Shown here: one piece after another, positions 17,168-37,119 of the stretch
Layout of the letters: each line of letters begins with the position of its first letter
How positions within the stretch are numbered: the stretch's first letter is position 1
Source of the DNA: Escherichia coli
Lineage (GTDB): Bacteria > Pseudomonadota > Gammaproteobacteria > Enterobacterales > Enterobacteriaceae
Assembly (NCBI RefSeq): GCF_030013595.1
Contig: NZ_CP122769.1
Length of the DNA: 64,000 nucleotides
Reading direction: 5' to 3' (one strand)
Made by a program: the position numbers and the translations under genes
The notes under the pieces: generated by a model
Database searches by the model: none
Seen by the model: the letters and a program-made list of their open reading frames with translations, nothing else
What the model was told of the DNA's origin: nothing

Positions 17168-18721
17168 TTAGTTTTCAACTAACTGAACGACGACCAGCCT
17201 GCCGCCTTCCTCCTTTGACAGAACAAACTGAGCGTTATTCGTCAGTTCAATTTTTTCCCCAATGGCAATCTGTCGTTTATCCGGTAATGACATAAGCCCA
17301 TTTATGCCTTCATTTACTAACCACCACTGATCGTTATGGAAAACAAAATACCCAACTCGTTTCCTTTGTGCATCGGTTGTGCGCTCATTTGGCGCAATGA
17401 GGCGATTCACATGCCACGCATAGATTGACTGCCCGCTCCACACCATCAACCGGTGGTCGTCAGGACGATAACTGCCTTCCTTTCGGGATGAATATAAATT
17501 TAGAACCGGTAATTTACCCTTGTATGGCGTACCGCAGTAGGGACAAACCGGCTTTGTCTTACCTGAGAAAACGTACCATTTCTGTTCACACGCCTTGTTC
17601 TGGCAGGGCTGTATCAGATCGACTGTTTTAACCAGGGCACTTTCCCACTCATCGGCGGTCGGGCGTTTATTGGCATCGTGTAAGCCATCAATAAAGGCGC
17701 GTTCAAACAAAGGCGTCAAATAAGGGCCCATGATGGTGTAAGGAATTTTCTCCGGGTCAGCCCAGGGCAGTGAAAAGGAGGATATCTGACTGACTTTGAC
17801 TGCATTGCTTTTGTCTGTCGGATGTTCAATGAAGAGTGCCTTCTCACCCATAGATAAGGTCTCATCACGTACTTCATCCGACATGTCATGTATTTTTCCG
17901 CCACGTAGCGGATGACGGAAGAACAGATACATGTAGATAAGCACCGACAGCGCATGACGGTCAGTAGAAATGCTTGGCAATACGCGGTTCGGATCCTCTT
18001 TGGAAAGATGGCTGGTTTTCACCACTTCCGGAGCGATAAAATCCGGGGTGCCCACGACGTCGGGAGGATACTTTCCAGGGACAACCAGGCCGTCTACGTC
18101 AATGATGCAGGCATGTCCCATTTCTGGATCGATAAGCACGTTTTTATAGCTTAGATCGCTGTGACAGAGACCTGCCGCATGCATCCTTCTGACGGCTCTT
18201 GTTAGCAGCAGACAGACCTTGAGATAGGTAAGCGTATTGCCTCGTTCACGTGGGTCGAGAAATTTATTCTGGTTGCTGGCGCTGGCAAACCATTTGCCTT
18301 CCTTTTCACGGCCTTTTATGCCAAGAAAATCATCGTTTTTAGAGCCGTATTTAAAGAAAAAGTAGCTTTTGTAGGTTGGAACCACGATGCCGATTTTATC
18401 CCCATGCTCAACAACGTGGGTCGGCCAGCAAAACAGGTCCTTCCAGTATTCACCTCCGGACTGGCCAAAAATGTTTTGCCTGTAGCGTCCGGTGATCATA
18501 TCAATCCGATCCCGGGCCTGCTCGTTCTGCGGTTTATGATAAAAAGCGACGACGTATGATTTATCAGGCGAGAAGTAAACATCCTTCATCGAGCCCGAAC
18601 CAATTACCTCGTCAACATACTGGACTGTTTCGCCGTCCTTTGTTTTGCACGTAACAATATTTGCCATATTGATCACCGAAGAAGCGTATCCCTTACCACA
18701 ACACCGCAATAGTGCGGTCAT
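17168..18721 (-). CDS. Ser/Thr protein kinase with C-terminal zinc ribbon and FHA-like domain (ter-linked)
   Basis: Catalytic loop HSDLSYKNVLI, DVDG (DFG-like), GTPDFIAPE; CQNKACEQ..CPYCG zinc ribbon; WWLVNEGINGL FHA-like; alternative start at 18667 (MANIVT) avoids overlap with phosphatase gene. Confidence 0.8.
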   Translation of the reverse strand: MTALLRCCGKGYASSVINMANIVTCKTKDGETVQYVDEVIGSGSMKDVYFSPDKSYVVAFYHKPQNEQARDRIDMITGRYRQNIFGQSGGEYWKDLFCWPTHVVEHGDKIGIVVPTYKSYFFFKYGSKNDDFLGIKGREKEGKWFASASNQNKFLDPRERGNTLTYLKVCLLLTRAVRRMHAAGLCHSDLSYKNVLIDPEMGHACIIDVDGLVVPGKYPPDVVGTPDFIAPEVVKTSHLSKEDPNRVLPSISTDRHALSVLIYMYLFFRHPLRGGKIHDMSDEVRDETLSMGEKALFIEHPTDKSNAVKVSQISSFSLPWADPEKIPYTIMGPYLTPLFERAFIDGLHDANKRPTADEWESALVKTVDLIQPCQNKACEQKWYVFSGKTKPVCPYCGTPYKGKLPVLNLYSSRKEGSYRPDDHRLMVWSGQSIYAWHVNRLIAPNERTTDAQRKRVGYFVFHNDQWWLVNEGINGLMSLPDKRQIAIGEKIELTNNAQFVLSKEEGGRLVVVQLVEN

Positions 18722-20333
18722 CGTGGTTCCCTGTGGAGAAAAAGTTAAGCCAGTCGCCTAACCTCTCAGGCGCAATACTGGCGTCTGTAAGGACAGGGAT
18801 GAGCTCATCAAGGAGACGGGTCCATTTTTCGTCACTGCGAAGCCCGTTATCTGTCTCAAACAGAGGGTCTGATACGCCATCTGTCATGAGGATCAAGTGA
18901 GATACATCATTCCATTTACCCACGCTGATGCGGCCGCTAAACGAGGGGTCTGCGATAATGCTCTGGTCAAGAAAGCGGGTTTGTCCTGCGTATTCTCCGC
19001 TATCGGGATTTCCCAGTATCCTGACTTTACCGGAAGGGCTGTATGCACCTATCGCACCATCACCAAGCCAGAATGCAGCCGCAAACAGCTCGTTATCAGT
19101 TCGTAGCGCTACAGTTGCCAGTAGGGTTGTTGAATAGGATTTCACAGGTTGTTCTGCACAAATGGCTTCGTTCTGGATACTGTTGACCGCGAGCGTAGCT
19201 GCCTGTTTAAAATGATGAAGCATGGCGTTTATGGTTGCCTGCTGATCGCTCCCTTCCCACGCCGTGATGTGCTGCTTTAGATGGACGCCTTTCAAACCAC
19301 TGAGCTGATTGAAAAGGTAATCGCCAGCCGTTTGGACTGCAATCCGGGAGCCTTCCCGGGAATTTACCGCACTACCGGCCCCGTCTGCGACCAGCATGAC
19401 AGACCATCCTGTTTCCTGGCAGTGGTTGATATAGAAGTCGTCATCTCTGAAGCTCCCGGCATGCTCATGAGATCGTCCCCGGCGACTGGCGGCAGCAATA
19501 CGTATGTCACCCCTGACCAGGCCAGCAGCGTCCAGATGGGACTTAGGGTAGGAAGCGTCTGCTGGTGGCTCTACCACCTTCCACAGGCTTCTCGGATCGG
19601 GATTGACTATAAAAAGCTGTTTTGTTTCGCATTCGTCGTGCGAAGCGCATGACCAGAGTACTGAAAGCTCTATATCGCCGCTTTCGGTGGGTGTACCTGT
19701 CAGCAACTTATGCTCTTTGTCAAAGGTCAGGCCAATGTTCCTGGGAAAGACAACGTCCCTGACAGTAGCCTGCTGGCCCTCATCCAGAACTATAGCAACC
19801 GGCGAAGAGAAACGTTCGCCTGCGCGGGCGTTGGGAATAACTATTTTAGCTCTCGGGGGAACGGCAGGTGGCACAGCTAATCCGGCCCGCTGCTGGCCTG
19901 TCGGTATCTGCCCGGGTTTTAATACCAGGGAAGACAGGTTTTCGTCTTCCCTCTGTGCTGGTTTATCAAATTCGTAATAAGGCATCAGCTTCCAGAACGG
20001 AGGATGAGGTTCATTTTCTGGCAGGGGTTGCAGTAATGGTGTATCGGTAGCGTCAATGCCCGGGTTATCAGCATCACTTACGACCGTTTGTTGCTGATCG
20101 GAAAGGCTGGATGCTGACGAGGGGGCGATCTCTGCGTCGTTATAACCTTCGCTAACCCGCGCAGATAAACCCTGTGCAAGGCTCTCAATCCGCTCTTTAA
20201 GCCGCATAATCTCTTCAGTAAGGGAAGGGTCGTGCGATAGAAGAAAAAGCCGCTCACCTTCTACAGGGTGGCCCAGCTCAGACAGCACTAAGCGGATAAT
20301 CTTCTCTTCAAGTAAAACATTTTGCGACATCAA
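18693..20333 (-). CDS. PP2C-family Ser/Thr protein phosphatase (ter-linked)
   Basis: PP2C motifs RRGRSHEHAGSFRDDDF, VADGAGSA, LILMTDGVSD. Confidence 0.8.
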   Translation of the reverse strand: MMSQNVLLEEKIIRLVLSELGHPVEGERLFLLSHDPSLTEEIMRLKERIESLAQGLSARVSEGYNDAEIAPSSASSLSDQQQTVVSDADNPGIDATDTPLLQPLPENEPHPPFWKLMPYYEFDKPAQREDENLSSLVLKPGQIPTGQQRAGLAVPPAVPPRAKIVIPNARAGERFSSPVAIVLDEGQQATVRDVVFPRNIGLTFDKEHKLLTGTPTESGDIELSVLWSCASHDECETKQLFIVNPDPRSLWKVVEPPADASYPKSHLDAAGLVRGDIRIAAASRRGRSHEHAGSFRDDDFYINHCQETGWSVMLVADGAGSAVNSREGSRIAVQTAGDYLFNQLSGLKGVHLKQHITAWEGSDQQATINAMLHHFKQAATLAVNSIQNEAICAEQPVKSYSTTLLATVALRTDNELFAAAFWLGDGAIGAYSPSGKVRILGNPDSGEYAGQTRFLDQSIIADPSFSGRISVGKWNDVSHLILMTDGVSDPLFETDNGLRSDEKWTRLLDELIPVLTDASIAPERLGDWLNFFSTGNHDDRTIAVLW

Positions 20334-21370
20334 CCTCTCCCTCTGTTTACGTCGAAGTTAGTGTTTCCGCCATCATTGCTGAATGACAGACCTGTTTCAC
20401 ACCACGGGCAGATCACGTCATCCGGGCCGTCAATGCACAGCAATTTTCCGCATGAGCACAGGGCAAACGCACTGGCATTACCGCAGTGAGGGCAACCCGG
20501 TACGCCATGCAGTTCGCTGGTGTTTACCTGCAAACCGGTAGCGGTGGCATCTGACCATGCAAAATAGTCCTCATCGATGGGATAGCATCCGGCAATATTA
20601 AAGCTGTTCAGGTTCAGGCTGAAATCGAGCCCGGAAATCCTTGCTGGTGGCCGTTCATACTTCATCAGATACGGACGACGGGTCTTGCTGCAACGGCCGG
20701 TAAGCGTAACGCAGTTTTCGTCGTACGCTTTTACTGGCTCGTCCTTGGCCAGCCGGACTATGTATTCAGTCTGGCTGAGCTCAGGTTGTTTGTCGTCTCC
20801 GACGCTGCGGCTGTGCGCCGTAACCGAGGCTGTGATCCATTTGATGAAGCGGGTAAAGTCCCCTTCCTGAGACTCGGTGAACAGCATGACATTCTCTGTC
20901 AGTTGCCGCAGGGTATTCAGGTCCGCTGACGGCCCCAGGCCAACGGCAATGAGATTCACTTTACTCGCGTAGTGATCCTTCCAGCGCTTCACTTCTGCGG
21001 TTGTGTCGTCAGTCGGACGTCCGTCGGTAAGGAGATACACGACGGGTTTCCAGTCGCCTTTAGCCTCATGAGTGGTTTTTCTGACCTGGGTATCAATTTG
21101 TACGGTCAGCTCACGCAATGCGGCCCCAAGGCTCGTACCGCCGCCAACGGGAAGGCGGGGAGGGTAGAACGAGGCAATTTCGTGAAGAGGTACAATCGTA
21201 CGGGCTACACCGGCAAATGCGATTACCGAAACCCAGGCTGTTTCAAGTGCGTGTGGATCCTTTCTTAAATCTCCGATGATCATTTGCAGACCATCAGTCA
21301 TTTTTTTCAGGTTTTCACCAATCATGGACTCTGAACAGTCCAGGACAAAAAACACGGGAAGGCGTCTCAT
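20330..21370 (-). CDS. TerY-like vWA domain protein with C-terminal zinc ribbon
   Basis: MRRLPVFFVLDCSESM (vWA MIDAS motif) ... CPHCGNASAFALCSCGKLLC..CPWC; start assigned to internal ATG (21370) by analogy with the other TerY paralogues. Confidence 0.75.
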   Translation of the reverse strand: MRRLPVFFVLDCSESMIGENLKKMTDGLQMIIGDLRKDPHALETAWVSVIAFAGVARTIVPLHEIASFYPPRLPVGGGTSLGAALRELTVQIDTQVRKTTHEAKGDWKPVVYLLTDGRPTDDTTAEVKRWKDHYASKVNLIAVGLGPSADLNTLRQLTENVMLFTESQEGDFTRFIKWITASVTAHSRSVGDDKQPELSQTEYIVRLAKDEPVKAYDENCVTLTGRCSKTRRPYLMKYERPPARISGLDFSLNLNSFNIAGCYPIDEDYFAWSDATATGLQVNTSELHGVPGCPHCGNASAFALCSCGKLLCIDGPDDVICPWCETGLSFSNDGGNTNFDVNRGRG

Positions 21371-21455
21371 AATTTTCCTCGTACGGCTGGTACGGCCAGC
21401 AGAAAACGTTGCTGTACAGAAAGGTGCTGCCCGGAAAGCAGCACCTTTCTGTCTG

Positions 21456-22097
21456 TCAGAGCACCAGCTGGATTTCTGGTGGAGGAGGGGGAAGGGTATC
21501 AGTTCCGTTATTGATCCCCGCGCTTGTGCTGCCGGAAGACACGCTGGCCGATACCCATTTAAAGAAACCTGCAAACGCGGTTGAATCTAGCGTCTCCAGA
21601 GACACAACCTTATCGGTGAGCTGTTTTAAGTGCTCATGGCCTGCTTTAGGACCAACGGCGCAGGCAATGATGGATCCGAATCCCCGGCCGCGAATCGCTT
21701 TTACCGCTTCACCGTACGCCAGGGCATCAGAAGGGGTTCCATCAGTCATCAGGAATACCAGAGGACGCCAGTCTCCTTTTGTATCACCATCTGAGCGACG
21801 TACATCCCGTTCAACACACTGCATCAGACATTCAAGGGCAGCACCGGTGAACGTCCCGCCTGCGCTTGGCACAACGATGTCAGAAAACTGGAAGTCTTCC
21901 AGCGGCGTGAGAGGAATGAACTCACGCGCCTCATTGTCATAGGTGATAATGGAGATATGAACGCTTTCGAGGGCGTAGGGATCCTGGCGAAGAGCGCTAA
22001 GCATCGCCTGAATTCCAACGTTAACGGAATGGATGGACTCACCGCGCATCGAGCCGGATGTGTCGATAACAAGGTAAACAGGCAGGCGGCGCATCAC
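21456..22097 (-). CDS. terY: TerY (vWA domain) tellurite-resistance-associated protein
   Basis: MRRLPVYLVIDTSGSM MIDAS motif; 213 aa. Confidence 0.85.
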   Translation of the reverse strand: MMRRLPVYLVIDTSGSMRGESIHSVNVGIQAMLSALRQDPYALESVHISIITYDNEAREFIPLTPLEDFQFSDIVVPSAGGTFTGAALECLMQCVERDVRRSDGDTKGDWRPLVFLMTDGTPSDALAYGEAVKAIRGRGFGSIIACAVGPKAGHEHLKQLTDKVVSLETLDSTAFAGFFKWVSASVSSGSTSAGINNGTDTLPPPPPEIQLVL

Positions 22098-22735
22098 ATG
22101 TAATTCCTCAGGTGCGAGACAAACGAATCTGATTCTGAAGGCTCACCAATTGCCCTGAGTTTCCAGCCTGTAGCCTCGCGTATCAGCTCGGCAAAAACCA
22201 TGGAGCGCTGGCTGGCGAAGGCGGGTCCGCCAGAAAGATCGAATCGTGCCATTTCAATATTACGGGCATCTACTGCCCGGATGAAGGCATTCTGAACTTT
22301 ACCAAAGTGCTGCTGGAGCTTTTCACCATTGTAGATCTGAACGATGAACACAATTTTCTCGTACTGAGCGTCAAGGGAATTCAGGCGCACAATAATTTGC
22401 TCATCGTCACCATCACCGGCTCCGGTTCGGTTATCGCCCGTCAGCCAGATATTTCCTGACTTATGGCGAAGGCTGTTGAAAAAGATGATATCGCCATTCA
22501 CAAGCGTTGGTTTACCATTTTCCACATTGCCGAGATCGGTCACCTTTCCGGCTGAATTACACAGGAAAGCGATCACATCAAGGTCGTATTCTTCTTCTTT
22601 TTTACCAAAGATCCCGCCGAGGAAACCTTTCTTTTCCTCATTAATATCCCAACCCAGGCCGATAGTAACGGACGAGAGATCGTATTCATTTTTTTTCAGG
22701 CTTACGCCCTGGCCTTTGCTCAGACTGACAGACAT
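22094..22735 (-). CDS. terX: TerX (TerD-family) protein
   Basis: TerD-domain signature GDNRTGAGDGDDEQI; 213 aa. Confidence 0.85.
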   Translation of the reverse strand: MSVSLSKGQGVSLKKNEYDLSSVTIGLGWDINEEKKGFLGGIFGKKEEEYDLDVIAFLCNSAGKVTDLGNVENGKPTLVNGDIIFFNSLRHKSGNIWLTGDNRTGAGDGDDEQIIVRLNSLDAQYEKIVFIVQIYNGEKLQQHFGKVQNAFIRAVDARNIEMARFDLSGGPAFASQRSMVFAELIREATGWKLRAIGEPSESDSFVSHLRNYM

Positions 22736-22757
22736 GACATCCCCTTAATTAATAAAA

Positions 22758-23396
22758 TTATAAGACCACGTTTACTTCTGGCGGCGGCGGTGGCAGGTCT
22801 TCAAGACCGATCACTTCTTTTTTGCTGGACTCCACTTTCTGACTGCCTACCGAAATGCTCGCACTGACCCATTTAAAGAAAGCTTTAATCGTCGAACTGT
22901 CAGCTGTATCGAGCTGAACCACGATTTCAGTGATTTCTTTGAGGACGCTGGTATCGGCATCATGCCCGGCTGCACATGCCACAACAACGCCGGTTCTGGC
23001 CGCTTTAAAGTCATTCAGGCCTTTACGCCAGTCATCATTCGGACTTCCATCCGTCATCAGGAATACAAGGGGACGCCAGTCACCTTTAGTGTCAGCCGTC
23101 GTTTTCTGTACTTCTTTGGCAATGGAGCTGGCCGTCAGGGTAAGCGCTGCGCCAAGAGAGGTGGTGCCGCTGGCTGTTAGTGCTGGCATCTGGAAACTCA
23201 GGAGGTCTGTCAGGGGGACTGCCTGTCGGGCTGAAGAATCAAAGGTGATCACTGACACGTAAGCCGTTTCGAGTGCATACGGATCCTGTTTCAGCGTGGT
23301 AAGCAGCGTCTGAACGCCATTCTTAACCGCTTCGATAGGCTCTCCGTGCATAGAGCCGGACGTGTCGAGTAGCAGATATACGGGTAAGCGTCTCAA
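22758..23396 (-). CDS. terY: TerY (vWA domain) protein; probable TTG start
   Basis: LRRLPVYLLLDTSGSM; TTG at 23396 preceded by aaggaa RBS gives an N-terminus like the paralogues (the ATG-based ORF extends to 23477). Confidence 0.75.
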   Translation of the reverse strand: MRRLPVYLLLDTSGSMHGEPIEAVKNGVQTLLTTLKQDPYALETAYVSVITFDSSARQAVPLTDLLSFQMPALTASGTTSLGAALTLTASSIAKEVQKTTADTKGDWRPLVFLMTDGSPNDDWRKGLNDFKAARTGVVVACAAGHDADTSVLKEITEIVVQLDTADSSTIKAFFKWVSASISVGSQKVESSKKEVIGLEDLPPPPPEVNVVL

Positions 23397-23859
23397 ATGT
23401 AATTCCTTCTTAAGAGATCGGAAGAGGAGAGTAGTTTCAGGAAGAGGCCAGAGTTTGTAGATTTGATAAAACGGCACGACATCTGTCGGGTGGAGATTAA
23501 ATACTCAGAAGCGGCATTAAAGAAATAAGTTAACCACCATTGAATTACCGACATGTGAATGGCCTCTTATCAGAGAAAAAAATTCAGACCGTACTGGAAT
23601 ATAAAATTTCTGAAAAAAACTCCGGCAAAAATAAACTTTCTTATGTATGAAAATCATCATACATCACAGATCTGCATGAATGGAGTGTAAATCGCCCAAA
23701 GATTGATGTGTAGCACAAGAGGATGTCAAGACACCAGGTTTTGTAGGCAGAAAGGCGCTGCTGACATTGCGGGAGGAGAATAGATCAAAACTCCGTCACG
23801 CAGATACAGAGGTGAAATATGACAAAACCGGGGTTTTCACCCCGGTCTGAGATTTAGCG

Positions 23860-24327
23860 TCAGGACTTTTTAGCGCTGTATTCTTTTATCAGTTCATCAA
23901 CGGAGTGCAGAGCCAGCTTCTCTACCGCTTCACTTCGGGTCGAGCCACTCAGCGCAGCCAGACGGTCAATTTTTCTTAAAATCCGCATGCGTAGCGATAA
24001 TGACACGGCTGTTTTTTTATCCTTATCGAGTACGACCTTCCCTGTGGACTCACCGGTTTTCAGTTCAGCATTCTGTGCGAGCGCTTCATTCATCCGGCGA
24101 AGGGTCTTTTTATCCAGCTGGCCCGGATTAACGAGATGGTAGGAATGACCTGCCTTGCTGTATTTGATCTCCGCAGAATATGACTCGCGTAGCTCTTTGA
24201 GTGCCCGGGTTAATGTCGGCTCTGAGCATTCCAGACTGGTTATAATGTCGGCAGCGGAAACGGGCTTGCCGGTGCCCAGTAAGTTGGCAAGCTTAAAAAT
24301 CCGGGCCTGTCTGGTATTTAATTGCAT
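23860..24327 (-). CDS. terW: TerW-like DNA-binding protein
   Basis: 155 aa, position downstream of terY-terX-terY matches terW; predicted wHTH N-terminus. Confidence 0.65.
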   Translation of the reverse strand: MQLNTRQARIFKLANLLGTGKPVSAADIITSLECSEPTLTRALKELRESYSAEIKYSKAGHSYHLVNPGQLDKKTLRRMNEALAQNAELKTGESTGKVVLDKDKKTAVSLSLRMRILRKIDRLAALSGSTRSEAVEKLALHSVDELIKEYSAKKS

Positions 24328-24344
24328 CGTAAGATTTAGCCTGC

Positions 24345-25553
24345 TTAAAGGGTTAGTGGTTCAATAGGCTGAAAAATGAAGGTACTGCTCATCTTTCGAA
24401 TAACCGGGTGATCGCCTAACGCTTCAACCGGATCAATGTGTTCTAAGCCTGCAAAATTTACTGACGACATCTGGCTGCGACTGCATTTGCAGGACAGGAT
24501 ATACTCATCCTCCAGATAGCCGGTCCGCTTACTGACCCGTTGCGTAAAGCCTGACACAATCACGTTGTCGAACGGTAGCGTATGTAAAACGATACCGACC
24601 AGGCGGAACAAGCAGCCATGGACGTGGCGGGCATAGTTTTCGCGTACGGCTTTTTGCGTCATGGCTTTTTCCGTCAGCTCCGTGCCCCGGGCATTAACGC
24701 CGTAAATCTTATCAGGGAAATCTTCAATCTCAGCTAAATCAACATCCAGCAGGACTGCTGATAGCTCCGGCTTTACTTCAAATGCAACAAGCGTTTCACG
24801 CGGCCATTCAGTTTCTGCCAGCACACCCGCCAGGTATGATTCGAAAAACGCGGCGTCTGTCCGGAACTGCTGCCGGGCATCTGCCTGAGCCGTGGCGAGC
24901 CGTTTTTCATGTTCTTCAGCCTCAAACTTCCAGTTTGCATACTGTTCGGCCCAGGCCGTCCGTTGTTGCTGGTACCGGTGCTGTCGAAGGGTATTCTCAC
25001 GCTCCACATCAATCAGCTCCTGCTGCCACCGGCGAAGATTTTCGGCGTGGCGCTCAGCTTTAGCTGATTCCGATTCAAACCATTTACCCAGAAAACTAAT
25101 GCCTTCGCTCTCGGCAGGCTTTTCCGGCAATGCAAGATAGTCTGGCTTTTCTGGACGCACCGGTGCCGGAACCTGAAAAGGCGACGTTCTGTTATGCAGG
25201 TATACTGCTTCCAGCTCTGCCCAGCTGATGCCTGTTTTAGGATCCGGCGTCAGCTCGTGAATATTACGGATTGCGGTCACCGCTGACATGAGATCAGCGG
25301 CTTCCTCCTCAAGCGCCTGTCTGAGCCCCGGGTCGGTAGCCGTCCGGTTCCCACCTCCGGAACGCGCGGCCCGATCAAGCCGGGTACGGTAACTCAGCCC
25401 GGTACCGGGCAAGCCCAGATTGGCATAGGTCCCCCGGCTTCCAAAAGAAACGGAAGCACCTCTCGGCCCGACACTCAGGCTCGGTGCACCGTTACTCAGG
25501 TTGAGGCGAACACCAGGAATAATGTTGATCGACTTTCTGAATCTGAACCCCAT
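24345..25553 (-). CDS. ter-linked hypothetical protein with DUF4236-like N-terminus
   Basis: N-terminus MGFRFRKSINIIPGVRLNLSNGAPSLSVGPRG characteristic Gly/Ser-rich beta-rich start; acidic/coiled C-terminal half. Confidence 0.5.
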   Translation of the reverse strand: MGFRFRKSINIIPGVRLNLSNGAPSLSVGPRGASVSFGSRGTYANLGLPGTGLSYRTRLDRAARSGGGNRTATDPGLRQALEEEAADLMSAVTAIRNIHELTPDPKTGISWAELEAVYLHNRTSPFQVPAPVRPEKPDYLALPEKPAESEGISFLGKWFESESAKAERHAENLRRWQQELIDVERENTLRQHRYQQQRTAWAEQYANWKFEAEEHEKRLATAQADARQQFRTDAAFFESYLAGVLAETEWPRETLVAFEVKPELSAVLLDVDLAEIEDFPDKIYGVNARGTELTEKAMTQKAVRENYARHVHGCLFRLVGIVLHTLPFDNVIVSGFTQRVSKRTGYLEDEYILSCKCSRSQMSSVNFAGLEHIDPVEALGDHPVIRKMSSTFIFQPIEPLTL

Positions 25554-25563
25554 TATGATTTCC

Positions 25564-26523
25564 TTAATGATGCTGGGTCACGGTAAGTAATCTGATTCCA
25601 TCAGCGCTTTGCTCGTTCTGTAACCCATAAAAACGAGCTCTGTCCAGAATGCCAGCCGCCCAGCGGCGATGTGTGGCGGGTTCACACATTGCTCCCTGCG
25701 ACTTAAACACGGCCTGGGTAGAGTTCAGGATCCGCAGAGCGTCAGAATGCTCACCCTGAGTGACCATCAGCGCGTTTTGAATGACCTCTATCTGACCCGG
25801 GTGAATGGCCGTTTTCCCAACAAGCCCATGTGCCATATCAAGAGCCAGCTCTCTGGCCATTACGGCATGATCGTCAATATGCTCACATACGGGCGCGGTC
25901 AGGGCAAAATCACGCGGGCCGAAGACCGAAACGAGCATTTTGATGACGTAGCCCATCGGGCTGTCATACAGCGTCAGGTCCCGGGGACGGCGAAGCGACA
26001 CAACGTTCATAAGATCGTTGCCGCCGATTCGAAGCGCAATAATGCGGTCGTGGCAGGGATGTTCCACCAGACGGGTGGCCAGCTCCCGCATCTGAACCAC
26101 GTCAAAGACGTCTTCTGTTTCCAGCGTTGGCATCATGCACAGGTGAGTCCCGCCCATGATATCCCACCATTCAGCTAACGAACTGAGGGTAAATTTCGGC
26201 AACACAAACCCGTCGACAGCGGAAAGATCATAATGCGCTTTTAACCATCTGCCCATTTCGGCATGCCGGGGGCGAATGAACACCAGAGGCCAGTCATTTT
26301 TACCCAGGCTATGCATGCTGTTACTGAGCTCGTGCAGCAGGTGCTCCAGATTTTTGAGGGCGACGGGGATGTCTGCTTCACTGACAGCATCCTCCAGGCA
26401 AATCACCAGAGAGCGCAAACCCGGGATTTTCCCGTGCAGGACGGCATCAGCAATATCTTCCCGTGTTGCAGGCATGTATAGCGTGGCTCCCAGATTCCAG
26501 GGAGAAAGACGATTTTTCATCAA
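25564..26523 (-). CDS. HpcH/HpaI aldolase / citrate-lyase beta (CitE)-like TIM-barrel enzyme
   Basis: Overall CitE-like pattern (..FIRPRHAEMG.., ..LETEDVFD.., ..RIGGNDL..); ATGA overlap with upstream gene. Confidence 0.65.
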   Translation of the reverse strand: MMKNRLSPWNLGATLYMPATREDIADAVLHGKIPGLRSLVICLEDAVSEADIPVALKNLEHLLHELSNSMHSLGKNDWPLVFIRPRHAEMGRWLKAHYDLSAVDGFVLPKFTLSSLAEWWDIMGGTHLCMMPTLETEDVFDVVQMRELATRLVEHPCHDRIIALRIGGNDLMNVVSLRRPRDLTLYDSPMGYVIKMLVSVFGPRDFALTAPVCEHIDDHAVMARELALDMAHGLVGKTAIHPGQIEVIQNALMVTQGEHSDALRILNSTQAVFKSQGAMCEPATHRRWAAGILDRARFYGLQNEQSADGIRLLTVTQHH

Positions 26524-27599
26524 AGTACCTTCTTGATAATGGTTACAGCCCGATACTGGCCGAGGGTTCCCCCCATTTCTGTAACAACTATTCCCTTTTC
26601 ACGAGCAAGCCCTACAAGCAAGGCAACGTCCGGGTCGTCAATAGAACGCACAAATACATGGTCCGGTACCCGACGTAATACAGCCCGGGTTGCTTCAGCA
26701 ATACCGGGTTTTATACGATTGACGCTGTCCACTTTAAATTCATCGGCCAGGAACGCGATAACGTCGCGACTTGTCTGCCATAAGATCCGGGCTGACTCCG
26801 TATTCCAGCTCAGGGGAGCGAGGGATGACGGGGTTAACTTCTTACGGAAATGAGCGACGGTATCGACAAGCATCCGGCTGCATTCGAATTCACTGAGATG
26901 CTCGCAAACCATGCACCCGTGTAATCCTTCAGAGGACCACACTGACCGGGAGATCAGGCCTGACACCGGCGCACCCATGATGCCAAAAGGAATGAGCCAG
27001 TCATCATCACTGGCTGCAAGCCAGGAGCAGCCACAGGGATCGGCCAGGACAACCAGTCGCGGCTGCTCAGGATAGCCCGGGCGATCTTTCAGTGCGCGTA
27101 CAAGCTCTCCGGTAATTGCGCCTTTACCTGTCCATCCGTCAACAAAGACAATACCGCTGGTACCATGCCGCTCTTCAATGACGTCGAGGGCTGCACCGTC
27201 AATTCCACGATCCCGGATAATGCTGATACCGTAATGCCATGAGGTTTTCCCCATGTCACGCAGGGCCTGGTGCAGCATAACGCCGAGCGGCACGCCAGCC
27301 CTGACAAGACTGGCCAGTACAATGGGCTCATCACCAAAGCGTTTGGCCAGAGCAATAGCGAGCTGTGTGACTTCTTTTGCAAGTCTCTCTGCGCCCCGAT
27401 CCAGCGCCCGGTGAAACAAATCAAGATGCCATTGTGTTGGCGCTGGCTCCTGACTGAGCATGTCCGAATAATGTTTCTTCCCTGACTGAATCAGCTCTTC
27501 TTTTTGCTCAACCGGCGTCATCTCAATGACAACCGGCTTTAGCAGAAATTCCACGTCACCGGGCTGGTATGAGCCGGTAAATGTGTCATGTGGCTGCAT
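26520..27599 (-). CDS. ter-linked PRTase-like / StiP-like protein
   Basis: Member of the ter biosynthetic operon; start placed at internal ATG (27599) adjacent to HAD stop. Confidence 0.45.
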   Translation of the reverse strand: MQPHDTFTGSYQPGDVEFLLKPVVIEMTPVEQKEELIQSGKKHYSDMLSQEPAPTQWHLDLFHRALDRGAERLAKEVTQLAIALAKRFGDEPIVLASLVRAGVPLGVMLHQALRDMGKTSWHYGISIIRDRGIDGAALDVIEERHGTSGIVFVDGWTGKGAITGELVRALKDRPGYPEQPRLVVLADPCGCSWLAASDDDWLIPFGIMGAPVSGLISRSVWSSEGLHGCMVCEHLSEFECSRMLVDTVAHFRKKLTPSSLAPLSWNTESARILWQTSRDVIAFLADEFKVDSVNRIKPGIAEATRAVLRRVPDHVFVRSIDDPDVALLVGLAREKGIVVTEMGGTLGQYRAVTIIKKVL

Positions 27600-30577: not shown

Positions 30578-30899
30578 TTTTTTTAATTATCCGGAACGCC
30601 ATGCAAATTTATGATTGAGAAGTGAGTCTATGAGTGTCTACGCTACATGTCAATCATAATATGATTAATAACTTCAGTGGTTATGGAGTGCGTCAGTGTT
30701 TTTTTAGTACCTTATAACGTATTGATATTTAAATTAAAAATAGAAAAATGAACACCATGAAAAGGATTTATTTTTGTGTTTTTGAAGAAAACTACCAAAA
30801 TTTCCCTTGTCAGAGAACTTCATCATGATATGATTTTCTTCGTCAGTTACTAAATATACCTTTGATTGTCTCGGTCATTACCATTTTAAGGAATAAAAC
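30578..30899. promoter_or_regulatory. AT-rich divergent promoter region between biosynthetic operon and terZ
   Basis: 322-bp AT-rich non-coding spacer between divergently oriented operons. Confidence 0.5.
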
Positions 30900-35877: not shown

Positions 35878-37119
35878 GTGAATCTACAATCCGGACAAAA
35901 CATACCGCTTCAGCAATCTGCGATCAGGCTGAATCTTCAGTACCCTGCCAAATCCGGCTTTAAAGGCGAACCCGATACCTGCCTCTTCCTGCTTAATGCT
36001 CAGGGAAAGGTAACCGGCGATTCTGACTTTATCTTTTATAATAATCTGTCTTCTCCTGAAGGGGCAGTAAAGCTCGTTACCGGTTCTCAGCAGTCCAGCA
36101 TTGAGATAGCACTGGATCGTGTTCCGGCGAACGTCAGTAAGATTGCGATCACCGTTGTCATTGATGGTGAAGATACTATCAGTGGGCTCAGTTTATTGAG
36201 CATTCAGGCTCCTGGTATCGCTGATTTTCAGGCTGAGACTCAGGGCCGCAGTGAGAAAGCAATCATCCTGGGTGAAGTATATCGGCACAATGGCGCCTGG
36301 AAGCTTCGTGCGCTCGGGCAGGGTTTCAACGGTGGTCTTGAGCCTCTGGCCATTAGCTTTGGCGTTGATGTCGCACAGCCAGCTCCGCAGCCAGCAAAGC
36401 CCGCTCGTATCAGTCTGGAAAAGAAACTTGAAACCAGATCTCCGCGCCTCGTAAGCCTCGCTAAAAAAGCCTCGGTCAGTCTCACTAAAAATAAACTGGA
36501 CACCCTTGAGGCAGCGGTTGCATTTGTACTTGACGCATCCGGCTCAATGAGTGGCCAGTTCAGTAAGGGCAACGTTCAGTCTGTGCTGGACCGCATCGCC
36601 GTTCTTGCCGCCCAGTTCGACGACGACGGTGAAATGGATGTCTGGGGATTTGGAGAGAAGCACAAGAAGTATCCAAACGTCACACTGGACAACCTGGACA
36701 CATATATTCAGTCCATTCGCGGGTCTGGAAAGCGTTCAGCCTGGGAGAACCTGCCGGGACTTGGTGGGACAAACAATGAGCCCCCTGTGATGGAAGAAAT
36801 TGTCGACTACTTTAAGGACTCGAAAATCCCGGTATATGTTGTATTTATTACCGATGGCGGGATCAGCAAGACCCGGGCGATTAAAGATGCAATCCGGCGT
36901 TCTGCCAACTACCCCATCTTCTGGAAGTTTGTCGGCCTGGGTGGTTCAAGCTACGGTATCCTCAAAAATCTGGATGACTTTACTGACCGCCGGGTTGATA
37001 ACACCCACTTCTTTGCCATGGATGATTTCGGTTCGATCAGCGATGAAAAGTTATATGATAATTTACTGGAAGAATTCAGACCGTGGATCGATGAAACAAA
37101 AAGGTTAGGCATCCTGTAA
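35878..37119 (+). CDS. terF: TerF (TerD-domain + vWA domain) protein
   Basis: 413 aa; N-terminal TerD-like domain, C-terminal vWA (VLDASGSM); GTG start with aggag RBS. Confidence 0.8.

Follow-up and report, generated by a model that had tools for sequence, protein, structure and literature searches.

The segment at positions 21456-24327 of the window (here, the whole 64,000-nucleotide stretch of Escherichia coli contig NZ_CP122769.1 that was analysed) carries the genes terW, terY1, terX, and terY2 of a tellurite resistance (ter) cluster. The analysis showed that terY1, terX, and terY2 form the first half of a six-gene module, a single conserved co-directional block of the composition terY1-(terX)-terY2-terY3-PP2C-kinase. 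The three von Willebrand factor A (vWA) genes of this block are, by sequence comparison, an ancient triplication held under strong constraint, and terY1 starts at a TTG codon. The locus as such is already known and had been read correctly by a sequence-only reading of the window; its observation was confirmed, and its interpretation was supported with small corrections.

All four genes of the segment were intact. Four minus-strand open reading frames (ORFs) occupy exactly the limits that had been proposed, position 21456 being the end of the terY2 stop codon and position 24327 the start of terW. In the direction of transcription, which is along the minus strand, the order is terW, terY1, terX, terY2, terY3, the PP2C phosphatase gene, and the kinase gene (Table 1). 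Two TerY-type vWA paralogues had been described as flanking a TerD-family TerX, and the Pfam search returned VWA, TerD, and VWA for the three proteins; the VWA scores of TerY1 and TerY2 were 47.8 and 53.4 bits, respectively, against a cut-off of 23.8. NCBIfam assigned none of the four proteins to a specific family. The genes are tightly packed, with a gap of 22 nt between terY1 and terX and with the ATG of terY2 overlapping the stop codon of terX (TGATG). The position of the set between a signalling triad and a biosynthetic operon was also borne out, the flanks being as described according to both Pfam and RefSeq. On the terW side, the neighbours are a DUF4236 gene (identified by Pfam just upstream of terW) and genes for HpcH-like, StiP, PRTase, and ATP-grasp proteins.

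The same genes, in the same order and with the same flanks, are found in the terW-terY1-terX-terY2-terY3 clusters of R478 (IncHI2) and pKL53-L (E. coli KL53), and the names terW, terY1 (or terY), terX, terY2, and terY3 have already been applied to plasmids of this type (PMC11003894; bioRxiv 10.1101/334409). The same arrangement was written as "terY-CYXYW" in PMC12054061. There was no material difference from the R478/pKL53-L cluster; the window retains the intact kinase and PP2C genes that were lost in many mcr-1-bearing relatives. A literature search for the names TerY1, TerY2, and TerY3 gave matches almost only to Trichodesmium locus tags. The 3-kb segment was 100% identical in several hundred IncHI2-type plasmids from Escherichia, Salmonella, Enterobacter, and Klebsiella, and 1261 plasmid records matched it in total, 747 of them at an identity of at least 99%. 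The example plasmid that was inspected belonged to IncHI2A, and its RefSeq annotation gives the same genes.

The conservation of the block was explored by tblastn of the window proteins against 80 related loci, with synteny compared across about 45 of them. TerY1-(TerX)-TerY2-TerY3(Zn)-PP2C-kinase occurred as a co-directional series of unchanged order in Enterobacterales, Acinetobacter, Sulfurovum, and a Fibrobacteres metagenome-assembled genome (MAG). It was likewise present in beta-proteobacteria (Polaromonas, Undibacterium, an Azoarcus-like strain, and Vitreoscilla), in alpha-proteobacteria (Magnetospirillum, Azospirillum, and Roseospira), and in Bacteroidota (Dysgonomonas, Chitinophaga, and Prevotellaceae). 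At loci that lacked TerX between Y1 and Y2, the position immediately upstream of Y1 was usually taken by a gene of the TerD family. Thus, what had been described as an additional set is better seen as integral to the conserved block that includes the triad.

The triad itself corresponds to TerY-P, which consists of a TerY vWA protein, a PP2C phosphatase, and a Ser/Thr kinase (Anantharaman et al. 2012, from the summary in PMC11090510). In the same source, TerY-P is proposed to act as a switch that senses metal and depends on phosphorylation. TerY1 and TerY2 are vWA proteins of the TerY type with a complete metal ion-dependent adhesion site (MIDAS), and their genes lie directly upstream of the triad and are co-directional with it. 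They stand outside the minimal triad, lack the zinc-binding TerY_C domain, and carry an invariant LPPPPPE tail instead, and a TerD-family gene is inserted between them.

The alignment of the three consecutive vWA paralogues, one of which carries the zinc ribbon as had been noted, gave pairwise identities within the window of 47% for Y1-Y2, 42% for Y1-Y3, and 38% for Y2-Y3. A neighbour-joining tree was built from 155 sequences taken from related loci (57 TerY1, 51 TerY2, and 47 TerY3), and they fell into three clean clades, one for each paralogue. The clade labels came from the best tblastn match, which makes the test partly circular, although they agreed with the gene position in every locus. 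The median identity within the clades was 67, 58, and 54%, versus 49, 42, and 38% between them. The MIDAS motif DxSxS...T...D was complete, and its residues D11, S13, S15, T79, and D116 were invariant in 57/57 TerY1 and 51/51 TerY2 sequences, the window copies included; in the 47 TerY3 sequences they were invariant save for one T-to-S exception. The ratio of nonsynonymous to synonymous substitution rates (dN/dS) against the closest diverged relatives was 0.02-0.03 for terY1, 0.02-0.03 for terX, and 0.03-0.04 for terY2, with dS of at least 1. Thus, strong purifying selection acts on terY1, terX, and terY2.

Three similar genes in a row could also be recent local duplicates that are drifting to pseudogenes. 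We consider the probability of this negligible, since orthologues are closer to each other than paralogues are, the dN/dS is about 0.03, and the MIDAS motif does not vary; the clade structure, the identities, and the dN/dS together rule out recent duplication and pseudogene drift. The duplication and divergence proposed by the sequence-only reading were supported, but the three clades and the low dN/dS indicate an ancient rather than a recent local event. A fourth vWA-domain gene (RefSeq WP_001053338.1, 1242 nt) was observed on the plus strand from about position 35878 onward, downstream of terZABCDEF, its location being derived from positions 26479-27001 of the plasmid locus L001.

The RefSeq coding sequence (CDS) of terY1 is 639 nt long and has TTG 23396 as its exact beginning, in agreement with the start suggested earlier. 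A Shine-Dalgarno sequence, AAGGA (23404-23408, minus strand), lies 7 nt upstream of this codon; in the enterobacterial orthologues its GGA is invariant and AGGA nearly so. TerY1, TerY2, and TerY3 all begin with MRRLPV at the aligned position. Among 55 orthologous loci, drawn from contigs representing one genome per species, the codon homologous to the terY1 TTG was ATG in 46, GTG in 4, and TTG in 5. Within the long terY1 ORF, an in-frame ATG first occurs at codon 43, as the Met that immediately follows the DxSxS motif; a start at this codon is not possible, because the first strand and the metal-binding Asp would be lost.

The mechanically called ORF remains open back to codon 23477, which had been taken for an ATG but is a GTG; the nearest ATG, at 23482, lies in another frame. 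Translation from GTG 23477, a permitted start codon, would give a protein of 239 amino acids with a 27-residue N-terminal extension, beginning MPFYQIYK... This start is highly improbable. Direct inspection of the sequence revealed nothing purine-rich ahead of codon 23477 that could serve as a ribosome-binding site, both paralogues and RefSeq agree on the later position, and the extension was absent or could not be initiated in 55/55 orthologues. In all five TTG-type loci, the closest relatives in this respect, no in-frame ATG, GTG, or TTG preceded the next upstream stop codon, and one of them had only a single open codon. Short of direct proof by proteomics, we therefore take the initiation of terY1 at TTG 23396 to be settled.

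A 53-codon ORF was also observed upstream of terY1 (23393-23554, minus strand). Its TGA stop codon overlaps the terY1 TTG (TTTGA), and an AAGAGG sequence lies 8 nt before its ATG. An upstream ORF in the same frame was present in three of the five TTG-type relatives (L014, L004, and L002) and absent from L003 and L005, and the encoded peptide was not conserved. As a weak lead, this ORF could couple translation to terY1 and so offset the weak start codon.

The AlphaFold2 (AF2) model of TerY1, built from 106 TerY1 and TerY2 sequences, had a mean predicted local distance difference test score (pLDDT) of 91 and a predicted template modelling score (pTM) of 0.90. It has a vWA fold, after which the C-terminal part runs through a long helix (residues 167-190) and a linker rich in Ser and Thr (residues about 178-197) to a short final strand. 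Foldseek matched the model to hundreds of vWA structures. TerX aligned over its full length with TerD of Klebsiella pneumoniae (2kxt/2kxv) and the TerD-like protein of Streptomyces (3ibz), with E values of 1e-33 to 1e-37. It differs from TerD by two insertions of 11 and 12 residues and by its location between the vWA genes and not in terZABCDEF. The acidic loop GDNxTGxGxGDDE of TerD, which we take to be the Ca2+ site in the solved structures, is kept in TerX as GDNRTGAGDGDDE and is aligned with the loop of 3ibz.

The C-terminal tails of TerY1 and TerY2 are LPPPPPEVNVVL (22758-22793) and LPPPPPEIQLVL (21456-21491), respectively. Across phyla (loci L002-L058), both proteins end with the near-invariant pattern L-P-P-P-P-P-E-[VI]-x-[VLI]-V-[LI], and L201, P202-P205, and E207 were conserved at 90-100%. 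TerY3 has no polyproline tail, and distant TerY-like vWA proteins of Lachnospiraceae end with the conserved sequence ...VDFDEGW. The conservation suggests that the tail of TerY1 and TerY2 serves as a C-terminal docking peptide. A Pfam search for a proline-binding domain in those N- and C-terminal stretches of PP2C and the kinase that have no assigned domain found nothing. The PPPPP run may in addition make translation of TerY1 and TerY2 dependent on elongation factor P (EF-P).

Taken as a whole, the locus is most probably explained as a known ter segment of the R478/IncHI2 type, associated with tellurite resistance and phage inhibition, in which a putative metal-dependent protein assembly is linked to the kinase and PP2C. 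In this assembly, TerY1 and TerY2 would contribute their MIDAS-containing vWA domains and TerX its predicted Ca2+-binding TerD fold. The assembly would be a partner, and probably a substrate, of the adjacent kinase/PP2C switch, for which the likely phospho-acceptor and docking elements are two parts of TerY1 and TerY2, their linker rich in Ser and Thr and their invariant LPPPPPE-hydrophobic tail. The enzymes are proposed as its partners because of the switch proposed for TerY-P, as summarised in PMC11090510, and because of the precedent of ArnB. The ArnA-ArnB structure of Sulfolobus acidocaldarius (PDB 8s05) provided the only PDB sequence match of TerY1 and its best Foldseek match (E 1.8e-9). 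In this archaeal system, which regulates motility, the vWA protein ArnB is controlled by Ser/Thr kinase and phosphatase activity; its sequential phosphorylation by the kinase ArnC alters its binding to the zinc-finger/forkhead-associated (FHA) protein ArnA (PMC12852372). The likeness between TerY1 and ArnB is best described as an analogy and not as family membership.

Several observations weigh against this explanation. The mechanism proposed to link TerY1, TerX, and TerY2 to the kinase and phosphatase was drawn from gene neighbourhood and from analogy. TerY1 and ArnB share an identity of 23-24%, and the template modelling score (TM-score) normalised to the target, ArnB of about 380 amino acids, was 0.36. 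Beyond its vWA domain, ArnB contains an additional beta-sandwich and a C-terminal domain that is phosphorylated, whereas TerY1 consists of the vWA domain, the long helix, and the short tail. The promoter scan called no sigma-70-like promoter on the coding strand of the terY1 leader. In addition, chromosomal islands of the O157:H7 type keep terW, the biosynthetic genes, and the terZ genes without the terY1-to-kinase block; thus, the block is not needed for the core ter function. Finally, terY1, terX, terY2, and terY3 are still 100% identical in widespread mcr-1 plasmids whose kinase and PP2C genes are disrupted, which indicates that TerY1-X-Y2 can persist without the enzymes, at least in the short term.

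The details of these two cases are as follows. In the mcr-1 IncHI2 plasmid NZ_CP020493.1 (L001 6517-10224), the stretch corresponding to window positions 18150-19623 was swapped for an ISApl1-mcr-1-pap2 cassette, and the sequence was otherwise identical. This 1.5-kb stretch spans the N-terminus of the kinase and the C-terminus of PP2C and is intact and uninterrupted in the window. About 620 E. coli genomes matched the query at the terW end only. In the E. coli O157:H7 chromosome (L082 5147-6532), elements of the IS66 family were observed directly downstream of terW.

A stricter version of the proposed explanation is that TerY1, TerX, and TerY2 are obligate parts of an ancient six-gene signalling unit that predates its capture by the enterobacterial ter cluster, with the tail docking the kinase/phosphatase or TerY3 and the linker acting as a phospho-switch; we put this forward tentatively, as somewhat unlikely in this full form. 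Slightly less likely still is that terY1-terX-terY2 are a separate unit that merely adjoins the triad. The R478 terXYW genes are reportedly protective against the toxicity of terZABC-type genes, as ascribed to Whelan et al. in 1997, and such a function could be theirs. The strong hairpin between terY2 and terY3 and the retention of terY1XY2Y3 in the mcr-1 plasmids described above fit this alternative, as does the finding that addition of terX-Y1-W to terZABCDEF improved tellurite survival in the compared constructs (PMC11003894). However, the order Y1-(X)-Y2-Y3-PP2C-kinase was kept across phyla, including genomes without terW, and at many block loci the 6-kb flanks contained no detected gene of the terZABCDEF type. 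The O157:H7 islands, moreover, carry terZABCDEF without terY1XY2, so protection by these genes is not obligatory.

Another alternative, which we regard as unlikely, is that the six genes together act in defence against phage, as a module related to the TerY-P systems (of the Gao et al. 2020 type) for which such protection has been shown, with TerY1, TerX, and TerY2 as sensors or effectors. According to PMC11090510, TerY-P-like modules act as stand-alone defence and associate with restriction systems, and phage inhibition by the R478 ter cluster is cited in PMC11003894. However, the TerY-P system described as experimentally tested in PMC11090510 has a different architecture, with a kinase carrying a fusion to an oligonucleotide/oligosaccharide-binding (OB) fold and with a single vWA gene. 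PADLOC, whose library was unconfirmed as to TerY-P content, had no model matching TerY1, TerY2, TerX, TerY3, or PP2C at E values up to 10, and the kinase had generic kinase matches only.

TerW differs from the rest of the segment in its distribution and grouping. In the tblastn search of the 80 loci, its occurrence was confined to Enterobacterales and one MAG labelled as Rheinheimera. The gene was always located downstream of the StiP and HpcH genes, with DUF4236 lying between HpcH and terW in some loci only; in the window, terW begins 17 nt past the DUF4236 stop codon. A hairpin resembling an intrinsic terminator follows the terW stop codon and may mark the end of the transcription unit of the biosynthetic operon and terW. 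Thus, terW is best grouped with the upstream biosynthetic operon, whose 3' end it occupies, and is an Enterobacterales-specific add-on. The sequence-only reading had a TerW-like regulator following the terY set; the identity was upheld by the AMRFinderPlus match, whereas the order was reversed, since terW precedes the set in transcription.

The Pfam search of TerW gave weak helix-turn-helix (HTH) matches only, to HTH_11 (E 6e-4) and HVO_A0261_N, both sub-threshold. In the AF2 model (pLDDT 87), a winged helix-turn-helix is followed by a long helix, and a disordered linker leads on to two terminal helices. Foldseek gave weak matches to regulators of the MarR/ArsR type (E about 2e-3). With moderate confidence, TerW can be regarded as a small predicted DNA-binding regulator with a winged-helix fold. 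Residues of about 105-155 also had a sub-threshold match to RHH_1 (E 0.0019), covering the two model helices that come after a short strand-prone segment, and one TerW homologue carries a precomputed RHH_1 match. The C-terminal third resembles a ribbon-helix-helix unit, and the protein may have two DNA-binding modules.

Binding and regulation of the ter promoter region by TerW were attributed to Valkovicova et al. 2011 in PMC12054061 and PMC7843439. Sequences of Pectobacterium and R478 have led to the proposal of a candidate operator, AATCATATNATGATT (PMC7843439). In the window, it occurred only in the divergent terZ/ATP-grasp intergenic region, at 30652-30666 without mismatches and at 30821-30835 with one mismatch, and no match with up to three mismatches was found upstream of terY1. 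TerW would then regulate the divergent terZ and biosynthetic promoters and not obviously terY1.

The 463-nt terY1 leader was conserved only among close relatives, namely L014 (Citrobacter) and L004 (Silvania). Its folding was unexceptional (z -1.2), and the Rfam scan of positions 21200-24500 at E values up to 1 returned only a chance snoRNA match (E 0.99). Two features of the leader were observed: a block TTGACA...CTTGTGCTACACATCAATCTTT at about 23698-23729, conserved in the same two relatives, and a perfect palindrome ATGTATGA-N6-TCATACAT at 23643-23664. Neither has a second copy within the window.

Directly after the terY2 stop codon, a 90-nt stretch containing a perfect stem folds at -39.9 kcal/mol (z -5.2). 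In the enterobacterial relatives, the corresponding site carries a hairpin of different sequence, followed in some of them by T-runs. The terminator scan did not call the stem-loop a canonical terminator, and it is probably an attenuator or messenger RNA (mRNA) stabiliser that sets the message of terY1-X-Y2 apart from the genes for the enzymes. Such a hairpin would probably hold the three structural proteins above the enzymes in abundance.

Table 1. Coordinates and assignments of the features of the terW-to-kinase region.
Feature	Position in the window	Strand	Assignment
terW	23860-24327	minus	100% to the AMRFinderPlus terW reference; 99% to a protein cluster named TerW
Terminator-like hairpin	23825-23848	minus	10-bp stem with 6 GC pairs and T-rich tail, just after terW stop
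terY1 leader	23397-23859	minus	463-nt intergenic region
terY1	22758-23396	minus	212 amino acids; Pfam VWA, E 4.9e-14; RefSeq CDS WP_049589870.1 with the same limits
TerY1 N-terminal peptide			(M)RRLPVYLLLDTSGSMHGEPIEAVK, predicted for the TTG 23396 start
terX	22094-22735	minus	213 amino acids; Pfam TerD (PF02342), E 1.3e-52, 178.4 bits, cut-off 25.3
terY2	21456-22094	minus	212 amino acids; Pfam VWA, E 2.6e-12; RefSeq CDS WP_001253658.1
Stem-loop after terY2	21416-21452	minus	17-bp perfect stem directly after terY2 stop, between terY2 and terY3
terY3	20330-21370	minus	Pfam VWA and TerY_C (zinc-binding domain)
PP2C phosphatase	18693-20333	minus	Pfam PP2C_2
Ser/Thr kinase	17168-18721	minus	Pfam Pkinase
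TerY-P triad (terY3, PP2C, kinase)	17168-21370	minus	completes the conserved block

The ter cluster is widespread on the resistance and virulence plasmids of Enterobacterales, and since the segment has already been annotated and named, the confirmation of its identity adds little. What the present analysis adds is the comparative case for the TTG start of terY1 and evidence for an old, conserved vWA triplication that is tied to a kinase and a phosphatase across phyla. In addition, the shared polyproline tail and the analogy with ArnB are two small leads on how the TerY module may signal.

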